64,000 nucleotides of DNA from Schmidtea nova. Its lineage: Eukaryota. Of the stretch, positions 10,484 to 24,493 are shown piece after piece (within the stretch, counting starts at the first letter, position 1; every line of letters begins with the position of its first letter). A program made the position numbers and the translations under genes. The stretch lies in contig CM097882.1 in NCBI GenBank assembly GCA_044892505.1, forward strand, positions 477,524,001 to 477,588,000, given 5' to 3'. The notes under the pieces are model-generated. The model was not told the DNA's origin and ran no database searches. It saw nothing but the letters and a program-made list of their open reading frames with translations.

Positions 10484-11214
10484 TGTTTGTGGATATTGTT
10501 GAGAAATTTAGGAAAAACGTTTGAGAGATAGAATTAAATAAAACTGCGCAGTTAAAATTTTGTTATGACAGAGAAAAACGTTGAACGCGAATACTTAAGG
10601 AGTAGTAATACAAACCGTTAATAAGAGCAGATAAAAGACATCGAGAAATACTTAGAAAATAAAATAATGGCCATGAATAGATAACGAACAAGTTATTTTT
10701 TTTTTTCCCTCGAATGCCGAGATGAGTATGATCATACTGTTGTTATAGTATTAGTATAGTTATTGTTATTGTTATTATTATTATTATTATTATCAGGGTA
10801 TAGATAATTGATACGACCATATAGATAATTATTACGAGATATAGATAATTTAAAATCTGAGCTCAGAGTAAAAGGGGGGTAAATGGCGTCGATGAAGAAG
10901 CGATATTTTTATTTAGATTGTCCAACAGACCAAAGCCAAGTCAAGAAACAGTCAAATCAATCAGTTATTGAAGAGGTATATATAGAAGAAAAGAAGAAAA
11001 AGAAGTCTAATTGAAAAGGAAAGAAGTAAAAGAAAATAAATCGAAGAAGATCCAATTGAAGATAAAAGAAAGATCAGCAATCGATATTAAAAACAAATTG
11101 ACAATATTACCAAACCAACCAAGTTCGTAAAGTCGAAAGATAAAGAGTCAAATCTATAAAGAAACGACGAAAGGAAATAACAAAGAAACAAAGCTGATAA
11201 ATAAAGAAAAAGAA

Positions 11215-12600
11215 ATGGAGGAGAATCAGAAAGTTACCAGTGCAAACTCAGAAGATAATTTATTAAAAGAAGAGCAGAAAATAACCAGTCCAAATGTAGA
11301 AGATAATTTACAGGAAGAAGAAAAAGAAGCAGTAACAATGAATATGCAACTACAACAGAATATCGAAGAAAAAGTAAATGAAATGATAACCGAATTATCA
11401 GATGTTGAAGTTGAAAGAAAGGGAAATGTATATGAATTTTCAGTAAAAGATATGGAGGGAAAAGAAAAGAAGAAGTTTGTGGAGAAATATAACCGAAAAA
11501 GAAGAGAAAGAAGAAGCAATGATGATACCTGTAGCATGGACGAGAAATGGGATGAATCTACGACAATCAAATTAGAAGAAGTGGCACAAAGATTATTAAA
11601 CATTACCATAGAAGAAATGACGAAAATGAATCAAAAATCGGAAGAAAAGAGGAAATCAGCGAAGCTTGAAAGGTCAAAACAAACAGAGACGTCAAAGACC
11701 GAACGATTAATCAGTAACCTAAGTAAGAGTGCAGGAAATCAATGTGAAACAACAACTGAATTACTAAAATGGGTTATAAAAAATAGTGCAAATATATCAA
11801 ACATGAGATTGATAGTGAGAGAAATCGAGAAATGCAGACGTTTATGCCCTTGGTATTCAACACAATTTGATGACATCATGAGAAAATGGAAACAACTGGA
11901 ACAAACAAACGATGATCCACAGATGTGCAGATTGAAAATTCAGTTTCCGAGTCTAGAAGAAATAAAGATGAGTGTATCATTAACAACAAAGATCAAAGAG
12001 ATAAAAGAGAGATTACCATTCAATTTACCATTTCACCTGAAATATGATGGAGAATCGCTGGATGATGATATAGAAATCGGTGTAGCCCCGATACAAATCG
12101 AAACAAGTAATAAATTAACTGTTGATAAAATTGCAGGAAGCGAGTTGACCAAAAAAGCGAGAGGTGAAGATAATCCCAAAACAACGATAATTGCAATGAT
12201 GAAAACTCCAGCTGGACCAACACTTACAATTAACATCGAAGTTAATGGCGTAAAAGTAGACGCGATGATAGATACTGGCGCAAATATATCAGCAATAGAT
12301 ATCGATATGATACCAGAATTGTTACGGTTAGGCATCGAGAAAACATCGGTAGACGTAATAACATGCAGCAAAGAATCTGTCAATATCGTTGGAAAATTAT
12401 GGACGGACATCGAATACAAAAATGTGAAAATATCAACTTATTTGACAGTCATAAAACAACTAGGTGCACCATGCATTATTGGAACAGACTTAATACCAAA
12501 ACTGTTAAAAGGATCTGTAATTGATTTGAATACGATGAAGTTGAAACACCAAATTGAAGAAAATTGCACAAGAGAAACAGCGACAGAACAATCAAGTTAA
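11215..12600 (+). CDS. 461-aa protein: acidic/coiled-coil N-terminus, ubiquitin-like segment, retroviral-type aspartic protease
   Basis: Protease at ~12217-12510 (VNGVKVDAMIDTGANISAI...CIIGTDL). The segment ~11923-12090 (CRLKIQFPSLEEIKMSVSLTTKIKEIKERLP...HLKYDGESLDDD) follows the ubiquitin pattern by eye. Confidence 0.85.
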   Translation: MEENQKVTSANSEDNLLKEEQKITSPNVEDNLQEEEKEAVTMNMQLQQNIEEKVNEMITELSDVEVERKGNVYEFSVKDMEGKEKKKFVEKYNRKRRERRSNDDTCSMDEKWDESTTIKLEEVAQRLLNITIEEMTKMNQKSEEKRKSAKLERSKQTETSKTERLISNLSKSAGNQCETTTELLKWVIKNSANISNMRLIVREIEKCRRLCPWYSTQFDDIMRKWKQLEQTNDDPQMCRLKIQFPSLEEIKMSVSLTTKIKEIKERLPFNLPFHLKYDGESLDDDIEIGVAPIQIETSNKLTVDKIAGSELTKKARGEDNPKTTIIAMMKTPAGPTLTINIEVNGVKVDAMIDTGANISAIDIDMIPELLRLGIEKTSVDVITCSKESVNIVGKLWTDIEYKNVKISTYLTVIKQLGAPCIIGTDLIPKLLKGSVIDLNTMKLKHQIEENCTRETATEQSS

Positions 12601-12603
12601 GAA

Positions 12604-12873
12604 ATGACCAGAAAAGGACAAGTATGTATGTTTCGAGAGAATAAAAATGACGATTGGCTACATCGTATATTAACTACGAGCAGAACAGTAAATCAGTCAA
12701 CAACAATATCTGAACAACCTAAGATAGTTGACGATGTAAAAATGGAGCACCGCAAAAAGATGGAATTGATCATTGAGATTACCAAAGAAATTATGCCAGA
12801 ATGGTCAAAAAGTAAAAATCTATTTGAAATATTGGGAGGAGTAAGCCTAATGGTTGAGGAATATGCCAAATGA
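12604..12873 (+). CDS. 89-aa ORF in the same frame as its neighbours, bounded by single stops
   Basis: Starts TAA-GAA-ATG after the protease ORF. Its TGA is followed by an open frame leading into 12892. Confidence 0.5.
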   Translation: MTRKGQVCMFRENKNDDWLHRILTTSRTVNQSTTISEQPKIVDDVKMEHRKKMELIIEITKEIMPEWSKSKNLFEILGGVSLMVEEYAK

Positions 12874-12891
12874 AATGAAACGACAGAAGCG

Positions 12892-14325
12892 ATGAATACC
12901 ATAAAAGAAAGATTACCAATATTATTTACAATTGCCAGTTTTAAAGATGAGATACCGTTATATCACGCAATAAAAAGTGGGAATGAACAGAGAATGTTTG
13001 AAATCATAAAACTCATGGAAAAGTGCAAGCAACATACCAACACAAAAAACTGGAAAGATCAAACACCCTTGATGATAGCAATTGAAAAAGGAGGATCCAA
13101 GAAACTCATAGCAGAACTGATGAGAACCGGATCAAGTTTTAAAGAAAGAGATGATAAAAATGAAACGGTGTTATCATATGCAGTGCAAGCAAATAACCAT
13201 CAAATAATCAAATATATTATGTCAAATGCTACAGAAGAAGATATTGAAGTGCTCAGTTCAGATCCAAATCCATTAGTAAATGCAGTGAACAAAGATGCCG
13301 ACGAAACAACAGCAAAAATGATTAAATGGTTACATCCAGTCACGCACGAAGGAGTGATAAATGTCAATGACAGATTTGAAGACGGTGAAAATATGATAAT
13401 GAAAAGAGCCATGAAAAGAAAATGGAAAATGTGTAAAACGATTAAAGCATTGCTGCGAAGACCTGATTTCAGATTTACAAACAACAAAAAAGAAAAAGAA
13501 AGAATTGGATCTAAAAGACATGAATTATATCAGCAAGTCATCATATGGAAGGAAAATATAAAAGAAAGCAGAATTCACCGAAGCTGGAACAACGCCAAAG
13601 ATGAAATAACCAAGAGAGCAAATATAAAAGCCGAAGCAGATGAAATAGCCAAAAGATATGAGGAAATAATAAAACTAATAAATGTCGAGGACGACATTTC
13701 AAACAAAACCGAGGGTGGTTCTGATGATCACAATAACCCTGACAATGAAGATGAAGAGAATGATAACAACAAAACAAAGAAAGATGACAATGAAAATATC
13801 AACAGAAACAATGACAAAGACGAGAAAGATGATGGAAAAAGCAATAACGATGAAATTGGGAACAAATGTGATGAACCCAAGCAAGAAACTTCAAATTATG
13901 AAAAACGAACAGCATGTCTACATAAAACTCGAATAAAAGACATAATATTACTGATATTGATGCTGTCAGCATTGAAAGGAACGGAAGCTGATGACAAAAG
14001 AAAACCAGTACAAATATTGATACAAGGAGCAGATAATGAAGAAGCATGTTGGAGTAGCGTCAAATTGCAAATTGAAGGAGATAATCCAGTCAAATGCCAA
14101 CGAGCAGAAGGAGGAGAAATCCGAATAAATGGATTGAAGCGGGATGCAAAATACAAAATCTGTGTTTACAAAAGGAAAGCAGCACAAGAATTGTTTAGAA
14201 CACTCGTATGCCAGATAGTAGCACATAATGGTTCAAAAGTCACCCAAGAAAACGTAAAAGTCATATTAACCGACGAGCCAGATGAGAACATCAGAATGTC
14301 GTCGAAACGCAAGTTGTCAGAGTAA
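12892..14325 (+). CDS. 477-aa ankyrin-repeat protein with acidic linker, internal hydrophobic/signal-like segment and FN3-like C-terminus
   Basis: About 4 ankyrin repeats at 12949-13330 (IPLYHAI, QTPLMIAI, ETVLSYAV, NPLVNAV). IILLILMLSALKGTEA at 13942-13989. IRINGLKRDAKYKICVY at 14119-14169 resembles the FN3 GL.P...Y...V signature. Confidence 0.8.
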   Translation: MNTIKERLPILFTIASFKDEIPLYHAIKSGNEQRMFEIIKLMEKCKQHTNTKNWKDQTPLMIAIEKGGSKKLIAELMRTGSSFKERDDKNETVLSYAVQANNHQIIKYIMSNATEEDIEVLSSDPNPLVNAVNKDADETTAKMIKWLHPVTHEGVINVNDRFEDGENMIMKRAMKRKWKMCKTIKALLRRPDFRFTNNKKEKERIGSKRHELYQQVIIWKENIKESRIHRSWNNAKDEITKRANIKAEADEIAKRYEEIIKLINVEDDISNKTEGGSDDHNNPDNEDEENDNNKTKKDDNENINRNNDKDEKDDGKSNNDEIGNKCDEPKQETSNYEKRTACLHKTRIKDIILLILMLSALKGTEADDKRKPVQILIQGADNEEACWSSVKLQIEGDNPVKCQRAEGGEIRINGLKRDAKYKICVYKRKAAQELFRTLVCQIVAHNGSKVTQENVKVILTDEPDENIRMSSKRKLSE

Positions 14326-14476
14326 CCAGTGGAAGGAACAGTGTATATAGTGTATAAAATTATATTGTATTATAAAAGTAGAATATATTTGTATAATAAA
14401 AATTTAAAAATCCAAAAAAATGAATACCTCAAAACTGGGAAAAACAAATGATAATATTGTGTAATTATTGACAGAA

Positions 14477-14926
14477 ATGAATCCGAACAACGAGAGTCAA
14501 AATTATCAAACATCAGTTCCAACGTTCAATGAACCATCAAATCAAACTCAGTTTCCAGAAGATACCAATATACGAGAAAGAGAAGGGTCACTGCAAACCC
14601 CAGTAATCGAAAATGAAACGCAAAATCCAACAATTAACGATAGAAACCTGATATACCAAGTCGAAATTCCACTATTTGATGAAACCATGAACCCAATTCA
14701 AACAACATTCGTATTAAATCAACAACCAACAAATAGCCAGACTCAATCAATATCAGCTCCGATGGTTTATCAGCAGACAATGACGCAAGAGTTATCATGG
14801 AAAACGCAATGTGAATTATTAAGCAGGATGTTGAATCAAGCCTATGCACAATGGAAAAATGAACAAGCTTTGTTAACAGAAAGTGTAAACAGAAATGTAT
14901 TATATCTCCGTTATGCCGATCAATAA
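14477..14926 (+). CDS. 149-aa hypothetical protein (N/Q/T/P-rich N-terminus, helical C-terminus)
   Basis: ATG at 14477, directly after TTGACAG; coding-like composition. Confidence 0.6.
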   Translation: MNPNNESQNYQTSVPTFNEPSNQTQFPEDTNIREREGSLQTPVIENETQNPTINDRNLIYQVEIPLFDETMNPIQTTFVLNQQPTNSQTQSISAPMVYQQTMTQELSWKTQCELLSRMLNQAYAQWKNEQALLTESVNRNVLYLRYADQ

Positions 14927-15060
14927 TCCAAATAAGCAACTTTGTAAATAAATTGTAAAGATTTTAATTTCAATTGATGTATACAAGTATTATTTAATAA
15001 GCATGAGCAACAAAAAATGTATAAACAAAAGGAAATTACCCATGTTATTATTATTTCAGA

Positions 15061-16608
15061 ATGAATATACAACAATTGATAGACATCCTAGATCAGGAGA
15101 TGGCCAAAAGACAAGAGCAACTAAATCAAATGAGAAATTATGAACAGAGAATGGAAGCCATCCAAGAGAACGTTAAATTGATTGAAAAACGAACCCAAGA
15201 GATCAACAAAATAAAAGAGGAAAACGAGGAATTGCGAAAGCTAATAAACGATAAGGCACATATCGAAGCTGAACTAGACAATTATAAACGAGAGTACAGG
15301 GAAATGGAGAGAAAACTCGAGCACGAACAACGAAAGTCGGTACCATTGAAAAACCAAGCGAGATTAAGAAAAGAGGAGCTCGAAACTTATAAAAGAGATA
15401 CCGAAACAAGATATGACAACTCCATAAGATTCTATCAGCAGCAACTCGAAAGTGAAAGGAACAGATATGAAGCCATGAAAAAGAAATGGGAAAAGTGTCG
15501 AGATGAAGCATTTGCCTTGAGAGGACAACCTCAAAAGAAGCTTAAAGTCAGAACAAGAAACATTGAACCTGAAAGCGAACAAGAAAAGATCATTAGAAAA
15601 GTTAAAGCAGAGGCTAGGAAATGGAAACAAGAACACCAAGATTTATTGGAAATGGCTCGACACAGAAAAATGCTACAGGAAGAATTACTAAGACGGAGAG
15701 ACGTTCAAATCGAGGCTCTGAAAGAGGAATGTCATTGGTATGCGGACATACGTCATGAGGAAACGGAGAAACTCAGAAAAGAAATATTCCAGTTGAAAAC
15801 GAGCGGACAGTTCAGAGAAAGAAGCATAAAGCATCAAATAAAGTGGCTAATAGAACAAGCCAGAACATGGAAAAAGACCTGGAAAAGAACTCGAGACGAA
15901 CTACGAGAATTCCCAAAGAAGCTGATGTCGATAAATGAAGCAGAATTGTGGGAAAATGCAGAAAAGCAAGAGATAGAAAACAAAGAATTAAGACGGCAAA
16001 TTCAATTAAAAACCGAATGGAATCAAAGGAGAATGAAATTTACCAGGAATCAAGAAGCTCGTATCAAATATCTAGAATTTGAAAACAGGCAATATGATCA
16101 ACAGAAAAATATGGACGATAGAAGTATTGAAGAGCTGACAATCGAATTGACTATTGCAAACCGTGAAGTCAACGGATATCGAGGAACAAATACTCATAAA
16201 GACATTGTTATTCAACACCAGCGACGGCAGATAGAAGAAACAAAGGCCGAATGTGAGAAAGCGTTCCAGCAATCGCAGTATGAGATTGAAATGGCTATCC
16301 AAAGTTTGGAAGAAAACCGTCAAAACTATGAAAGAGAGATTGAAAGGTTGAAAAATATGGAAAATACGAGAGAGCTCGAGATAGAAAAGGAACAGCTGAG
16401 CGAAGAACTCGATTATATGACATATTTGCTAGATGAAGAGATGGAAATCTCAAGAACTTTGCGAGAAAGAGTTCAGAGCCTACAAAATCAACCTCCAATC
16501 ATTCTATGGCCACTATATCCAACACCAATACAACCTGTACATTTGGAGCAAGAAAATCCTCAAATCGAAGATGAAGGGTTCGGAGAAATTGAAGAGACGT
16601 TTGTATAA
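15061..16608 (+). CDS. 515-aa long coiled-coil protein
   Basis: Intact long ORF in ~30% GC DNA, with E/K/R/Q-rich heptad-like sequence. Confidence 0.8.
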   Translation: MNIQQLIDILDQEMAKRQEQLNQMRNYEQRMEAIQENVKLIEKRTQEINKIKEENEELRKLINDKAHIEAELDNYKREYREMERKLEHEQRKSVPLKNQARLRKEELETYKRDTETRYDNSIRFYQQQLESERNRYEAMKKKWEKCRDEAFALRGQPQKKLKVRTRNIEPESEQEKIIRKVKAEARKWKQEHQDLLEMARHRKMLQEELLRRRDVQIEALKEECHWYADIRHEETEKLRKEIFQLKTSGQFRERSIKHQIKWLIEQARTWKKTWKRTRDELREFPKKLMSINEAELWENAEKQEIENKELRRQIQLKTEWNQRRMKFTRNQEARIKYLEFENRQYDQQKNMDDRSIEELTIELTIANREVNGYRGTNTHKDIVIQHQRRQIEETKAECEKAFQQSQYEIEMAIQSLEENRQNYEREIERLKNMENTRELEIEKEQLSEELDYMTYLLDEEMEISRTLRERVQSLQNQPPIILWPLYPTPIQPVHLEQENPQIEDEGFGEIEETFV

Positions 16609-16870
16609 ATAATAAAAGTGAATGTAAAGTGTAAAAAAGAAATTGAAATGTAGTGTAAAAAGAAAAAGTTGTAAAATATATCCAAAAAACTAAATAAAAA
16701 GCAGAAAAATAAAAAAAAAAAAAAAAAAAAATTCAATAAAAATTAGAAAAAATGAAAAACAAATAAAAATTAGAAAATGTTAAAAATGATAAAAATGATA
16801 AAAATGATAAAAACAAAAACAAAATTAATAAAACTGTAGAAAAGAGTTATGAAAATTCAAATTATAGAAA

Positions 16871-17446
16871 ATGAGACTATTGAAGCAAAGATCAGAACCA
16901 GAACAACAAACGATATCAAAAGAAAGATTCAAAAAATGGAAAAGAGCGACAGAGCAATATTATCAAGACCAAATAGACCAATTGAAGGAAGTAGTGAGCA
17001 AAGATAGAAAATATATCGCACAAATGGAGCAAGAGTGCGAGACGATGGAAATAATCAAGCGAGAAAATTATCTATTTCGCCAACAAAATGGTCTCACTCA
17101 AAAATATTGCGACAGACAGAAGCAAGAGATTGACAGACTCAAAAGGGAAATAAGCAGTGAACAGAACACTGATAATAAAAGGAAAATTAAGATCGAGTCA
17201 TTACAACGATCATTGAAGAACAAACAGAAAAAGATTATCAAAAGAGAAAAACAGATAATAAAGTTGAAAAGTGAAATTATAGAAGCAAAATTTGATACGT
17301 TCAAAGCAAAGAAAGCTGTAGAAATCAAAACGGCAGAAAATTACGTCCTCAAAGAGCAAAGGCGAAAGGAAGCAGATGAGATTGCAAAAATGGGTAACTG
17401 GAAGCCAGAAAGTCCGTTAAAGCTAAATGAAGAGACGAAAGAATAA
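16871..17446 (+). CDS. 191-aa basic coiled-coil protein
   Basis: Intact ORF, K/E/Q-rich heptad-like sequence. Confidence 0.7.
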   Translation: MRLLKQRSEPEQQTISKERFKKWKRATEQYYQDQIDQLKEVVSKDRKYIAQMEQECETMEIIKRENYLFRQQNGLTQKYCDRQKQEIDRLKREISSEQNTDNKRKIKIESLQRSLKNKQKKIIKREKQIIKLKSEIIEAKFDTFKAKKAVEIKTAENYVLKEQRRKEADEIAKMGNWKPESPLKLNEETKE

Positions 17447-17541
17447 AATATATCTAAACTCGTGTAAATATCACTGTAAAAATATAAAAGAGAAAATTTG
17501 ACAAATCATTAAACCAATTTGAATCTATAAATCTATAGAAA

Positions 17542-18365
17542 ATGAGCAATCTAATGAGGATCACAACAACCATCGTGATAGTTATAATTACAAACTGCCG
17601 AAGCGAAGAAGCATTGAGTCAATGTCAAGCAAGCCATCCATTTAGAAGATACGATAGCATTTGTGTAAGCTATCAAGAAATTTGGAGCACCAGAATGAGG
17701 AGTGTCAACAGATCCAACTGCAATGTCAACAATGTCCAAAATCCAGAGAAGATTCAATCACCATCCTTAAACAATTGAGAAATGAAACTCAACAATTAAT
17801 CCAACTACAAATCTCCTTAACCAAAAGAAACAATCTTCAACTAAAGAAACAACTAGAAAACCAATCATCTTTCAAACAGTTAACGACCGAACTAAAGAAA
17901 TTGAGCAAGTTAATAGAAAAATCTCTAAATAATAAAGATGAAGTTAATGAGGAAAGATCAAGTTTTACAGAAGAGTTGAATCAAAAACTGAAAAGTCAAC
18001 TTCATCAGACCGAGAGAATTATAAAACAATTGATATTACCCGAAAAGCGAAAGGAGATTATCCCTAAACAAGGATCAACCAACAAAGACGTCAGAGACCG
18101 AGAAGCAGCCATCACAGTCGTTCTACAAGGCATCAGTCTTTTCGCGGTCATAATGATCCTTAGCATTGTTGCATCAATCGGATTAGAAAAAATGAAATTA
18201 GAGAAAGCAAAAATCCAGTTGAATACAATCAAACGAATCACCCATGAAGACAACAACCCGTCAGAAAATTTTCTAAGATCAATATTTGAAGATCCAGTTC
18301 CAGAACAGCCTAATCCTGAGACAGCTACAACCTCGGTGCAGATGAATTACTTCTATAAACAATAG
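17542..18365 (+). CDS. Type-I membrane glycoprotein-like gene split by a one-base frameshift near 17680
   Basis: ORF 17542 supplies a signal peptide (ITTTIVIVIITNC). The overlapping frame 17661-18365 supplies the Cys cluster, coiled coil, sequons NET and NQS, and the TM helix AAITVVLQGISLFAVIMILSIVASIGL (~18105-18185). Confidence 0.65.
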
Positions 18366-18569
18366 TACGATTCTATTCCCCTTTTTACAATTCATGTATT
18401 TTCTTTCATTCATGTAATCTATTTATCTATTTGTATTCTCATCTTGAACAGTATTTCATCATCATTAATTCATGACCCTGTGTAAAAATCGTAACGCCCT
18501 TGTAAATAGAAAAGTTATTGTCTATCGTCATTATTCAATTTCTTTCTATTAGAAACACAAAAATCAACA

Positions 18570-19364
18570 ATGAAATCGTACCGAGAAGTTTTTCTAATCG
18601 CCATGATCACAACAATTTATTGTCATCTCGAAGAAACCCAGAAATCAAGCCAATTAAACCCAAATCAACCATATAATAAAGAACCATTTGAAATCTCTAA
18701 CAACCAACAACTATCCGAAAAGATTGAGCAAGCCAAAATCGAAATTCAAAATACCCTTTTCAATCAAAATGATGAAATTTCAGGCCTAAAGAGAATAGCA
18801 AGGATAATATTAGCCGATTTAGCGATCAGAGATACATTCGAGGATATTTTTGATAATGATCGAGAAACCCGTGACGCAATAAAAAGTCTCACCAAAGAAC
18901 TTAAAATGAATGTAGGCAAGTTAATCGATCAGCTAACGATAAATTCATCAAGTCCGAAATGTCTGAAACAAATCCAGCAAATTCATCATAACCTGTCCCA
19001 GCAGATTTCCGAAGTAGGAAACCAAACGGCACAACAACTGAGAAAGGCTTATTTCGAAAACCTGGCATATAGGAATAAAATCCACGATCACATAAACGAG
19101 ATATCGAAACCGGATAACAATCAAGACAGAGACAAGTGCAGAATATCCCTCCTATCGTCCGAACGAATTCTCGATATCTGCCTGATCATCCTTAACTTTT
19201 TCCTAATAATCGGAATTTGTGGTATAATATGGTTAGGCTTGACCGCCACAAGAATGATGAACAACATGACCTCCAAACAATCCCAAAGAGAAGATGACAA
19301 GAAACAGTTGATCAATACCGAGTCATTCAAACTATTCCAGTCGAAGATCCAACCAATTCAATAA
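18570..19364 (+). CDS. 264-aa type-I membrane glycoprotein with helical ectodomain
   Basis: Signal peptide (VFLIAMITTIYC); sequons NSS, NLS and NQT; TM helix ILDICLIILNFFLIIGICGIIWLGL (~19167-19241); short tail. Confidence 0.8.
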   Translation: MKSYREVFLIAMITTIYCHLEETQKSSQLNPNQPYNKEPFEISNNQQLSEKIEQAKIEIQNTLFNQNDEISGLKRIARIILADLAIRDTFEDIFDNDRETRDAIKSLTKELKMNVGKLIDQLTINSSSPKCLKQIQQIHHNLSQQISEVGNQTAQQLRKAYFENLAYRNKIHDHINEISKPDNNQDRDKCRISLLSSERILDICLIILNFFLIIGICGIIWLGLTATRMMNNMTSKQSQREDDKKQLINTESFKLFQSKIQPIQ

Positions 19365-19695
19365 TAAATTTGATAATTTAACAAACTTAATAAACTTGAT
19401 AAAACTTTTATCCGAGTCGTTGTAGACTCATATTGAACTTTGATTAGCCGCTGTAGGCACATATATTACATTTAATTTTGCTTGCGAGTCGATGTAGACT
19501 CATATTTATGTATATGTATAATTTTATTAATTTTTTTTTTATTTATAAACTTTTTATTTTTATTGTCGCGAACGGCATGATCACGACCAAGTAGCTCGTG
19601 TATAATGTACAACCTTTTGACCTTTGATTAGTCTTGGTTCTTAACCCCTCTGAGAAATTGCGGGACGCAATTTTTGCGGGCCCCCGAGTATTTTA

Positions 19696-22100
19696 TGTTG
19701 GGCCAAAACGCAATTTGTTTTAATAAAACGATAACCCCATAGGTAGAGAACGCGCAAAATTCCATTTTTAACCTTAGCTTCCATTAAAAATCCAACAATT
19801 AAGTGGAAAACACCAAAAGGTGAAGTGGAATCAAAACACATCAACCGGTAGACTACGCGCTAACTGCGAATTTATAAATATTTTCACTAAAATCTCGAGA
19901 AAAATTAAAAGCAGAATGTTTGGAAGCTAGAATAGGCAAAAAACCCATGGAAAGTGCCCATAAAGAACAGAATTTTGTCATAAACCTTCAAGTGCAGAAA
20001 AATTAACACAATTCTAGAGGAAAATTGTGAATTTATCACAAAATTTCACATATAACAATAGAAAGAATTAATATGGATCGAATATCATAAATTAAATCAA
20101 ATCGAACAAAATTCGATTCAAACATAAAAATTTTGCATTAAAATAAATTATTTATAGTTTATAAAAAATTATTATACAAAAATATGGAATTAATTTTCGG
20201 AAAATCATTAGAATTAATTTAGAAAAAATTAAGAGAAAATTCTAGAACAATTTGTTTTATTGCACTACCGGGGATAGAGAAAATTTGATGGTATATATAC
20301 CGCCATCAAAATGGCAGAATTCAGAATTTGTGAAAATTTTTCCGAAAGATTTTTTTTACTGATACAGAATTTGTGGTAACCAAAAATTTATTTAGAAGAA
20401 TTTAAGAAGAATTTAGAAGAATTCGTTAATTTCGAAAATTTGCGAGGAAACGTAAGGGGTAATTTGCTTTTTAATATTATATATTTTTTTTTTGGGGATT
20501 GGAATGGTCGTCCATCATGCCTGACGATCATCCCATTCCTCATTCTTTGTTAATTTGTTATTTATTATTCTATTGACGTATATATTGTTATTATGAAATT
20601 ATTAAAATATTAATTTTTGTTAAAATTTTCTTGTTATTATTATCATAATAAGACATAAATTTCCAACTTAATGATTATTTTGCAAGCAGTTATTTGAATA
20701 AAATTATCGAAAATAAATAAAGAATTTTTTTTTGTTTTCCATATCTTCTGACGATCCGTCCAGCATTGCGTTGTGCGGATCTGTTAGTAGCCTGGGTGGA
20801 TCGTTGTCTGATTGGTAATCGGCCAGCCCATATTTCCACTTTAAGGTGAGGCTCATACATCCAAATTCTCGTCATCCCAACTGGGGAATCGTGGTTTGGC
20901 CAAGAGCAAGGTTTTGTTATACTAATGATTTTTATTATAATAGAGTATCATATTTTCTATTATCTACATAAGCAATTTCGTAATATAACATAACAATCTC
21001 TAACTCATGTCTTGAAATCTAAAATAGGAAATATTATTAATTAAAAAATCGACTCGTACTCACCTTCACCTTCGCACTCTCAAAAACGATCAGCTCATGA
21101 GAAAATGCAAGAAAAATGGATGCTAATGATGAAGAGAAAATTGTTCGAAATAATGCTCAAGTCTAGAATAATGCTCACGAAGTGAAATGAATTGTGAAAC
21201 AAGTATTGATTGAATCTGAATTAAAACTCATTATGGTCTAAATAAGTTTTCCTGTGAATCTTGTTTTTCGAGAGCCTGAAATTCCTAAGTGAAGTGTCCC
21301 GAAAAATTCGCGTACACTTTGATTGGGAAATTCATGCTCAACAAAACCGAAATTTACTTCACTTGATGTTAAAAATATTCGTTGGAAAATGTATAACTTA
21401 TTTTATTTTATTTTTATTTTTTATTTAGCATATAAAATTTTTTAGATTAAATGCTTATTTAGATTTCGAAATTTATGGATGAAAAATTTATTATTATGTG
21501 AATTTCGTTTCGATCAAAAAATAAAAATTTACTTTTTATTATATTGGAAAATTTTTATAATGAATAATTGTGAACCAAAAATTCTCCGAATATTATTATG
21601 ATATAAAAGATTTTGTCATTTTATAAAATTCCTAAGAATTTATAAATCGAAACTTATATTGGAACCCATAAAAATTTTAAATCGAAAATATTATTAGTAT
21701 ATTGAAAATTTTATCATTTCAAAAAATCCAAAATTTCAAAATTCTATAGGAAAATTTTTTTTACTATATATACATATACTTAAAATATAAAAATTCGAAT
21801 ATAAAAATTCATATTATAAAAATTAGAAATGGTATTATTATATTATTAAAATTATAAAAAGCATTATAAAAATTTATAATATAAAAATTAGGAATTTTAT
21901 TATTGTATTATTTTCATAAAATTATAAAACTAAAATTTATAAAAAGTATTATAAAAATTTATAATATAAAAATTGGAAATTTTATTATTATATTACTTCA
22001 TAAAAATTATAAATCTAAAGTTTATAAAAAGTATTAATATTATTATTATTTTAATATAAAAATTATTATTATTATTTTAATTTTAAAAATATTTTATATA

Positions 22101-22138
<38 letters not shown>

Positions 22139-23468
22139 ATATATATATATTATAAATACCCCCACGATATCTCAAAAATCATAATGCATCCCTATTTGCA
22201 AAAAATTACATCCATTTCATTCAATAGCATTTTCCATACTAATACACAAGCAACATATATTTAAAATACAATATACACACATACACAGTATCATTTATTA
22301 GTATTCAATAGTTATATACACACAAGCAAACAATACTGAAAATTCTACACAGTTATGTTAGTCGGCAACATACATCCAGAAAAACCATACAAAAATTTCT
22401 ATCATTCAAACCTACCATATAAAATTGAATGTACCCAGCCAAATAAGCCATTTACATTACAGTTTATTTTTAATTTACAAAAATTTCGTAAAAATAATAA
22501 AAACTCAAACGAAAAAGAGTAAAGACGAAAAAATTTTTATCTAAAGATTTATTGATAAAAATTCAGTTTGAGGGATAAGAGTCCCCGGCAAGGATTTTTC
22601 CGGTTTGCAGTACTTGAAGGGCCAGTTCTAACATATTCTCTTCAAGAAATTTTCTAAAATTGTTCAAAATAAATTATAATTCTGAAATAATCAAAATTTT
22701 ACTTGGTTGGTAGAGCGGGCTATTTTGCTTCGTAGAAGCTCGAGATCTAATTGGATTGACCCATTTGGGGTGGGAGAATTTTCCTCTGGCTTCGTAGTTT
22801 CTGGGAAGATCCATTTCTTGTTGATCTGAACTATAGAAATCGTTAATTAATCAATTTAGTAAAAAATTCAGAAAATTACCTTTAAAATTAATATAATTTT
22901 TAAATTGAGTAAATTTGTCCTTTTGATTAAATTAGCAATTTTAAACAAACGGAAATTTTATTTTTATTATTTCTAAACTGGATTAAATTACGGTAATAAT
23001 TAAAATTTTTCTTAAATTTCAAATGCAGATTAAAAATTTTTCTATAAAAATATAATATTTTATGTATTAATTATCATAAAATGCAATATTGGTAAAATAT
23101 AGGGTTATATTAGTGTTTTGATGCTCGGAATAATTTATTTGGATGTAATAATGAATTTATAGTTATGTAGAGTGTTTATGTTGAATTTCCGACGAAAATT
23201 TTTATTGAAAGCTTATAGATAAATCATGTAAGAAGGGACAAAATGGGCAAGAGACCTTCTATCGGTAGCCCTTGGACCCAGGAGATATTCGGTCAATCAT
23301 AGTTTCGTATTGACGACGCTCACTGATTGCGAATACCCACCCACTTGTTACAGTACCAACGTTACATAGTGACGGGTAACAAGATGGTAGTTTAAATGTT
23401 TTATGTGTTGAGTTGTTGATGAGAGCCATAGAAACGTCAAGGTCATATTGACGATCAACAACCCACCA
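19696..23468 (+). repeat. 3' LTR (3773 bp)
   Basis: TG...CA termini. The offset to the 5' LTR is 17456 before and 17460 after the (TA)n tract. Followed by the TSD ATTT. Confidence 0.95.
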
Positions 23469-24493
23469 ATTTATTAAAATAATTTGAAATGATAAATAAT
23501 TTTAATTTAATAAATTTTTTAAATAATTGTAATAATTAACGTGTATTTAAATTTTTTTAAATTTTTATAATTTGTAATTTTTATTTTAAAATTTTGTAAT
23601 TTGAAGAGATGAAATAAATAATTAAATTTTAATAAATTAAAATTTTATAAATAATTTTTACATTTTTAAATTTTTAAATTGTTTTGAAAATCTTTTTTTC
23701 AAGGTTGAAAAATTGTTTGAAAATAATATAATATTTCATAAAATAAAAACTTGGAATTATGACTTCAACTTCTCAATCTGATTTAGGAAATAATTTAGAA
23801 GATGTTCTAGCAACATCTAATTTGAATACTTAAATTGAATTTATTAAATTAATTTATAATTTTAATATCTAGTTTTATTATAATTTTTAAATCTATTTAA
23901 ATCTGAAAATTAAATACTATTTATATTTAATTATTCTCACATTAAAGAAATAAGAAAACTAATTATTGTTAATTATTTTATTAAAATACAAACTCTCAGT
24001 AATTGCATTTATTAAAAGAATAATCGAAAAGTTTTGTATGTACAATTCAAAAACAGATTTAATTTGATATTTAATAAAAACTTTTTATTTAATTACTACT
24101 TAAAAATTAATAATAATACTTTATAATTTTTACATACACACACGCTAAATATATTTTATTAAATATTTTTTTTAATCATATTAATCATAATATATATTAT
24201 AAAATAGAATTATTATAAAGATAATCACAATATTAATTGTTTTAAATATTCAAAGGCATTAATATTTAAAACTACTTTTTATATTACAATAGATTTCATC
24301 AAACAAATATTCGAATTGTTACATTTAATGATAATAAATAATATTTTACGTCTGACATTCATGTTAGAGATAAAATTAAATATTTTGTAGCAGTTAATGG
24401 TCGCAGGCTTCATTAATAATTCACTAAAACAATTTTTAATGAATTTTTTAAATATTTTTGTAACCTCAACATGGCAAAAGGTAAAATTCAATT

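Follow-up and report, generated by a model that had tools for sequence, protein, structure and literature searches.

In dugesiid planarians, the closest described counterparts of the element reported here are the Burro (GYPSM1) elements, in which a single open reading frame (ORF) of 4,873-5,140 amino acids (aa) holds PF11976, Smc-like, BIR, BCL2, and ankyrin domains; the accessory domains also occur as free ORFs, and decayed copies with stops and frameshifts are found in Dugesia japonica (PMC6431247). According to PMC11410931 and PMC8532177, Burro is abundant and expressed. We analyzed a window of 64,000 nucleotides from Schmidtea nova (GenBank assembly GCA_044892505.1, contig CM097882.1, positions 477,524,001 to 477,588,000 of the forward strand) that contains a 21,229-nt long terminal repeat (LTR) retroelement at positions 2240-23468, in which a long accessory cistron is cut by in-frame stops. 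The stops probably reflect decay of an accessory polyprotein that was inherited when the defective master of an element of Burro-like, non-autonomous type was copied.

The likeness to Burro is one of described features, and no Burro sequence surfaced among the homologue-search matches of the interrupted cistron. Shared features include the very large LTR architecture, tandem repeats, a retroviral-type protease, and decayed copies, as well as a cargo of the SUMO- or ubiquitin-like (UBL) family PF11976 (sub-threshold here), ankyrin repeats, extended helical stretches rich in charge, and a RING of ubiquitin-related type. In contrast to Burro, the element measures 21 kb rather than more than 30 kb; has no giant ORF1 and no detected Gag/CCHC, reverse transcriptase (RT), RNase H, or integrase; and distributes its cargo over about eight spaced genes instead of one ORF, with the UBL adjoining the protease. 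Pfam identified no fusion-type env, BIR, BCL2, or MATH in the element's ORFs; genes G and H encode short signal-peptide/transmembrane (TM) proteins. The landmarks that define the element are the following.

5' LTR, 2240 to 6008, plus strand: 3769 nt, TG...CA, with an ATTT duplication at 2236-2239.
Primer-binding-site-like stretch, 6019 to 6037, plus strand: located 10 nt 3' of the 5' LTR.
Tandem repeat, 10057 to 10482, plus strand: 21-nt unit in 16 copies, plus a 26-nt tail repeat.
3' LTR, 19696 to 23468, plus strand: 3773 nt, TG...CA, with ATTT at 23469-23472.

Paired TG...CA LTRs and a short target-site duplication characterize the locus as an LTR retroelement, with an interior of 13.7 kb. 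The two LTRs differ by one C/T substitution and a 4-nt (TA)n length difference, and the ATTT duplication flanks both ends. The interrupted cistron comprises the following features.

Acceptor-like site, 10772 to 10796, plus strand: T-rich CAG on a (TTA)n repeat, ranking 3 of 340 YAG sites by T content; the next ATG is at 10883.
43-aa ORF, 10883 to 11014, plus strand: not in the frame of A to C; it may be an upstream ORF or else the start of the long gene, displaced by a frameshift.
In-frame TAA, 11128 to 11130, plus strand: the least certain of the three stops as an internal break.
ORF A, 11215 to 12600, plus strand: 461 aa, with a charged N-terminal part, a weak UBL, and an aspartic protease; stop TAA 12598.
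ORF B, 12604 to 12873, plus strand: 89 aa, predicted helical, no family, in-phase coding; stop TGA 12871.
ORF C, 12892 to 14325, plus strand: 477 aa, with an ankyrin array, an acidic N/D linker, a signal-peptide-like segment, and a beta-rich domain.

The initial annotation, made from the sequence alone, held that ORFs A, B, and C share one frame interrupted at TAA 12598 and TGA 12871, and that this frame is open upstream to TAA 11128 and beyond it to 11011. Both statements are confirmed by the stops in the frame of 11215, which fall at 11008 (TAA), 11128 (TAA), 12598 (TAA, then GAA ATG), and 12871 (TGA), with the terminal TAA at 14323. Under a codon-phase model fitted to the remaining ORFs of the element, a single coding phase extends from approximately 11011 to 14325, through all three internal stops, with weaker support at the 5' end. 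A and C are coding in the common phase, and for the 90-codon middle piece (12598-12871) the same phase is favored by 18-24 log units, which indicates that this piece is real coding sequence. For two independent junctions, the probability that chance alone leaves both of them open and in frame is ~0.055, and hence the claim rests on the phase signal, not on the coincidence of frames. At the 5' end, the probability of the own phase is 0.96 for 11011-11127, 0.83 for 11131-11214, and 0.22 for the 43-aa ORF at 10883; for 11011-11214 as a whole, the margin over the next-best frame is just 3.8 log units. The ATG-free stretch 10895-11214 was matched in 41 of 3000 shuffles, a post hoc figure to be read alongside gaps of 270-288 nt in coding parts. 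An identical 10-mer, in register, surrounds TAA 11128 (11123-11132) and the stop of the upstream RING gene (9059-9068) and occurs nowhere else on the plus strand; it may be due to chance or hint at 11128 as a natural end.

The age of the breaks can be gauged against the LTRs. One substitution across both repeats corresponds to 1.3e-4 changes per site since insertion (0.013% per LTR). If a stop results from 5% of random changes, 0.022 nonsense changes (0.12 at the upper 95% bound) would be expected after insertion in 11011-14322, compared with three seen, which supports the earlier proposal that the breaks predate the last insertion, provided that the LTRs have not been homogenized. The probability of three or more stops is 2e-6 to 3e-4, and that of two or more, leaving aside the stop at 11128, is at most 0.007. 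Because the LTR clock allows so few stops, the breaks arrived with the inserted RNA, barring gene conversion or an assembly process that homogenized the LTRs. Accumulating three stops over the element's coding sequence requires ~0.7% unselected drift (CI 0.14-2.0%), and the clustering of all three in one frame is borderline (P 0.056). A second gene of the element, the glycoprotein gene G, is also broken: its reported frameshift was located as a frame switch near 17630-17680. No slippery heptamer is present at either of the element's frame switches, and both lie near short homopolymers.

A further argument comes from the way in which the element separates its other genes, which are listed here together with a candidate donor site.

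Candidate major splice donor, 7037 to 7042, plus strand: the only GTRAGT in 5001-19700 (5.6 expected), with a putative function.
RING ORF, 8584 to 9066, plus strand: 160 aa, C3HC4 RING finger (PF13920, E 2e-12); TAG immediately 5' of the ATG.
ORF D, 14477 to 14926, plus strand: 149 aa, no family assigned; start context CAG-AA-ATG, preceding spacer 151 nt.
ORF E, 15061 to 16608, plus strand: 515 aa, of charged helical type, no family assigned; start context TTTCAG-A-ATG, preceding spacer 134 nt.
ORF F, 16871 to 17446, plus strand: 191 aa, weak BRE1-like helical match below cut-off; TAG-AAA-ATG after a 262-nt spacer.
Gene G, 17542 to 18365, plus strand: signal-peptide-like start, C-terminal TM, frame switch; TAG-AAA-ATG after a 95-nt spacer.
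ORF H, 18570 to 19364, plus strand: 264 aa, signal-peptide-like start, C-terminal TM; T-rich TAG 17 nt 5' of the ATG after a 204-nt spacer.

The spacers preceding D, E, F, G, and H (95-262 nt) are AT-rich with clustered TGTA. Together with the stretch after H, these six spacers contain 29 TGTA compared with 10.3 in shuffles (0 of 2000 reach 29), and the density in coding sequence is 2.3 per kb. TGTA may act as a 3'-processing (CFIm) or PUF element. AATAAA or ATTAAA occurs in five of the six spacers, and such a hexamer also follows all three in-frame stops and is therefore non-discriminating. The pattern YAG-A(0-3)-ATG is found at five of the six spaced genes (RING, D, E, F, and G, not H) versus 13 of 291 other internal ATGs, an enrichment with P 1e-6, or 5e-5 with a looser pattern, for a motif first spotted on these very sites. 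The interrupted cistron differs: the stops at 11128, 12598, and 12871 are followed by no spacer, none of the ATGs at 10883, 11215, 12604, and 12892 fits the pattern, and the possible acceptors upstream of B and C are poor in T (fractions of 0.18 and 0.12 versus 0.35-0.59), with that of C ranking 292 of 340. Since the stops lack the boundary signature, A, B, and C constitute one cistron by the element's own grammar.

The most likely reading of these data is that 11011-14325, possibly from 10883, was formerly a single cistron encoding a polyprotein of more than 1000 aa, with a charged region, UBL, aspartic protease, helical segment, ankyrin array, internal signal peptide, and extracellular beta domain in this order, which its own protease would have cleaved. 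Nonsense lesions, two or three stops along with the frame switches, would have arisen in an ancestral copy under relaxed selection. This master, devoid of gag, RT, and integrase, would have been packaged and reverse-transcribed by a helper through its LTRs and primer site, passing the lesions to the new insertion alongside near-identical LTRs. A free UBL-protease may still be produced from ORF A; for B and C no translation route is evident, and they are probably silent. The initial annotation had offered two origins for the breaks. A defective master fits the missing gag, RT, and integrase and the ~0.7% neutral drift, whereas programming finds no support in stop context, RNA structure, or stop positions.

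The presumed need for a helper follows from the absence of detected mobility genes. Pfam searches of the internal ORFs and tblastn with P0137, a gypsy-type polyprotein, revealed no gag, RT, RNase H, or integrase inside the LTRs, where P0137 matched the protease only, with remote RT or integrase remnants below the detection level possible; the same searches do pick up remnants of RT, RNase H, and integrase outside the element, at ~1-2 kb, 40-42 kb, and 54 kb of the window. The longest internal open stretch is 527 codons. The element thus has intact cis elements and no detected mobility enzymes, as do non-autonomous LTR derivatives, and shares with large retrotransposon derivatives (LARDs) and other such elements the layout of two LTRs and a primer site (here a candidate) enclosing non-pol DNA and, presumably, mobilization in trans. 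LARD-type interiors rarely exceed 10 kb, as stated in PMC6431247, whereas the 13.7-kb interior here contains ~8 kb of coding sequence that is largely open and carries expression signals of its own.

The domains proposed earlier for the cistron fared unequally. The protease and the ankyrin array stand: A contains a retroviral-type aspartic protease (~12229-12504, DTG near 12271; PF00077, E 2e-5, above cut-off), and C an ankyrin array (~12922-13470; PF12796, E 3e-11) with fold Z scores of about 16-17 to DARPins and IkB. The UBL of A (~11929-12075) is weak (PF11976 SUMO/UBL, E 0.006, below cut-off). The segment annotated as TM has a 19-residue hydropathy of 1.36 versus 2.6-2.8 for the TMs of genes G and H; judged by eye from its sequence, segment 13933-13989 looks like an internal signal peptide. 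The fibronectin type III (FN3) assignment in C was not confirmed, with no Pfam match, a single-sequence model at a predicted local distance difference test score (pLDDT) of 59, no Foldseek match at E <=0.001, and a best Z of 4.6; in the Atlas, the C-terminal domain clusters with beta-sandwich-like folds at 0.80 or below. No credible Pfam family was found for B, D, E, G, or H. The order UBL then protease recalls Ddi1, to which matches are weak (PF09668, E 3e-5, below cut-off; PDB Ddi1, E 0.2), but the best protease matches of A are P0096 (34%) and P0137, not Ddi1. P0137 is 2855 aa long, with three protease-like stretches and, by eye, two internal signal-peptide-like segments, an architecture akin to that of ORF C; the C-terminal domain of C has no significant match to the P0137 C terminus.

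TAA 12598 lies 15 residues past the end of the protease match. The idea that TGA 12871 cuts an ankyrin repeat was rejected: in a model spanning B and the beginning of C, with X in place of the stop, built for the ankyrin region from 41 of 148 ankyrin matches, the TGA is residue 91 and the array occupies residues 108-290, beginning 17 residues after the stop, and the helices of B have pLDDT values of 55-68.

Several observations weigh against a single cistron broken by inherited decay. Both main stops fall within linkers, one following the protease match by 15 residues and the other preceding the ankyrin array by 17 (P 0.19-0.30), and in-frame ATGs follow them by 2 and 7 codons (P 0.06-0.09); each result is non-significant alone, and both are what functional gene fission would lead one to expect. 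Only 4 of 463 ankyrin alignments reach at least 8 residues upstream of the TGA, all of them weak. The homologue searches provided no intact protein that would prove a former single ORF: the X-read-through of 11215-14322 had no homologue among 7999 candidates of 569-1813 aa and matched one generic ankyrin protein only among 5658 shorter ones. In a HMMER search of 1.84 billion representatives, which alone covered proteins of more than 1813 aa, 148 of the 150 matches listed were ankyrin-only and 2 were protease, and bacterial and archaeal genomes gave 12 pattern matches, none confirmed. The 43-aa ORF may be an upstream ORF with A starting at 11215, and the 5' "breaks" would therefore be a leader, not damage. 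The 10 N runs of the window assembly (133-355 nt each) could also mean that LTR identity is inflated. Under the fission hypothesis, A, B, and C would be separate proteins, with B and C expressed via termination-reinitiation or weak acceptors and stops replacing protease cleavage sites. The linker positions and nearby ATGs would suit it, as would a TGGGA at 12833, 55 nt upstream of ATG 12892, which we take to resemble the termination upstream ribosome-binding site (TURBS) of caliciviruses, and the AGAAATG context that ATG 12604 shares with genes A and D. Burro accessory domains likewise exist either as ORFs or inside the polyprotein (PMC6431247). However, TGGGA is expected by chance in ~7% of 60-nt windows and is present at one of the three junctions, two out-of-frame ATGs (12870 and 12875) intervene between the end of B and the ATG of C, the acceptors are T-poor, and the position statistics are not significant; we consider fission distinctly unlikely. 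An extended version, in which the element is a helper-dependent retroviral satellite without gag or pol, a multi-gene cassette yielding at least eight mRNAs through alternative acceptors and internal poly(A) sites, its polyprotein split at linkers by fixed stops and reinitiation, is slightly less probable again.

If instead the stops were confined to this copy, and it were an older one with LTRs made to appear young by gene conversion or assembly collapse, the gapped assembly and a break density that fits ordinary neutral decay (~0.7%) would be accounted for. At 0.7% per copy, however, ~50 LTR differences would have to be erased, and the LTRs are not identical, differing by one substitution and in (TA)n length, and agree across 3.77 kb as far as the ATTT duplication, which is intact, so that this history appears unlikely. 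Breaks produced by sequencing or assembly errors are very improbable. The frame switches near short homopolymers and the gapped assembly speak for such errors, and the frameshifts are more open to this explanation than the stops; yet one substitution in the 7.5 kb of the LTR pair bounds the error rate, three stops would take ~60 substitutions in 3.3 kb, and other long ORFs are stop-free, namely the element's ORF of 515 aa and one of 831 codons at 48373. Programming of the stops is unlikely in general. Readthrough at each stop, tuning long-polyprotein output, has retroelement precedents: in PMC2194720, the gag-pol junctions of murine leukemia virus (MuLV) and Tca2 and the pol-env junction of SIRE1 likewise place an in-frame stop between coding regions of an LTR element, CARYYA and +4 C are named as readthrough contexts, and local signals are insufficient to explain the stop bypass in Tca2. 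In those systems, one stop marks a structural/enzymatic boundary, usually with a 3' signal, whereas here several breaks occur with no signal and no pol downstream. Single in-frame stops within one coding phase would agree with readthrough. The contexts, TAA AGTCGA (11128), TAA GAAATG (12598), and TGA AATGAA (12871), are nevertheless unrelated, comprise two stop types, and include neither CARYYA nor +4 C at any of the three, bearing out the earlier remark that neither main stop has a classic readthrough context. None of eight 100-110-nt windows around the breaks folds more stably than shuffles (z -1.4 to +1.9, for simple folds as opposed to pseudoknots or distant elements). At the 5% cited for MuLV, two serial stops would yield ~0.25%, and the second gene is broken by a frameshift; the likelihood of programmed readthrough is accordingly very slight. 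Stops within unrecognized short introns are hardly credible: frame-keeping GT...AG pairs spanning 11128, 12598, and 12871 number 244, 115, and 112, but none of the 115 and none of the 112 combine a good donor and acceptor, the one that does so at 11128 does not exceed chance (17% of random positions offer one or more such pairs), and the coding phase runs through the stops. TGA 12871 is flanked by a GTAAGC donor and, 46 nt further on, a CAG (12841-12886), but this interval is not divisible by three and does not keep the frame.

The array of spaced genes is a more novel feature than the stops. Its sequence signature suggests that each spaced gene has its own splice acceptor and 3' end in an operon-like row. 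Somewhat more probably than otherwise, one LTR transcript would be resolved through alternative acceptors and internal 3' ends, by cis-splicing from 7037 or by trans-splicing of a spliced leader (SL). Bdelloid LTR-element ORF3s (PMC5408684) are downstream ORFs expressed from spliced messages and include small coiled-coil/TM ORFs, and SL trans-spliced operons of flatworms (PMC12582326) comprise same-strand genes at most 300 nt apart with YAG acceptors. The element differs from both in having six or more acceptor-led genes in one element; YAG is matched throughout, UUNYAG by some acceptors only. In the literature covered, which leaves most subscription papers outside, no description of a comparable element or arrangement was found.

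Within the window, the element is present in one copy, 12 element ORFs have no paralogues elsewhere, and it shows no similarity to the gypsy remnant at 38-45 kb. Presumably, the primer-binding-site-like stretch at 6019-6037 corresponds to tRNA-Pro; the window contains no tRNA genes, and an Rfam scan of 2000-24000 gave 0 matches. No purine tract is evident immediately upstream of the 3' LTR (19656-19695), and plus-strand priming may be unusual. The minus strand of that same interval resembles the plus strand after the 5' LTR (6009-6040), with an A/T run followed by GGGGGC. At 58996-59211 (minus strand), a fragment from a related LTR family matches the final 215 nt of the LTR at 79% and possibly represents the helper's family. 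Decayed RT/RNase H and integrase remnants lie at 993-2030 (minus), 39953-42168 (plus), and 53848-54616 (minus), and the element is inserted ~200 nt from the first of these. An uninterrupted ORF of 831 codons at 48373-50868 encodes ankyrin and ion-transport domains (TRP-channel-like), with one 87% homologue, P0153. Related palindromic repeat elements with near-perfect arms, microsatellite-flanked or -centered, occur at 34485-34740, 51038-51726, and 57319-57680.

If the stops are inherited lesions, as we favor, they are in themselves an ordinary finding, and defective masters moved in trans are well known. If they were fixed and functional, an animal retroelement would offer an example of serial stop-restart, which is rare. 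The element itself is a 21-kb structure with no detected pol, ~8 kb of ubiquitin-, ankyrin-, and membrane-type cargo, and a very recent insertion, and its cargo has no close relative among the 1.84 billion cluster representatives. Should the array be real, it would be an LTR element that expresses many accessory genes via acceptors and internal 3' ends arranged in a row and yet continues to produce full-length genome RNA, and it would turn into a testable question how giant Burro-type elements shift domains between a polyprotein and free ORFs.

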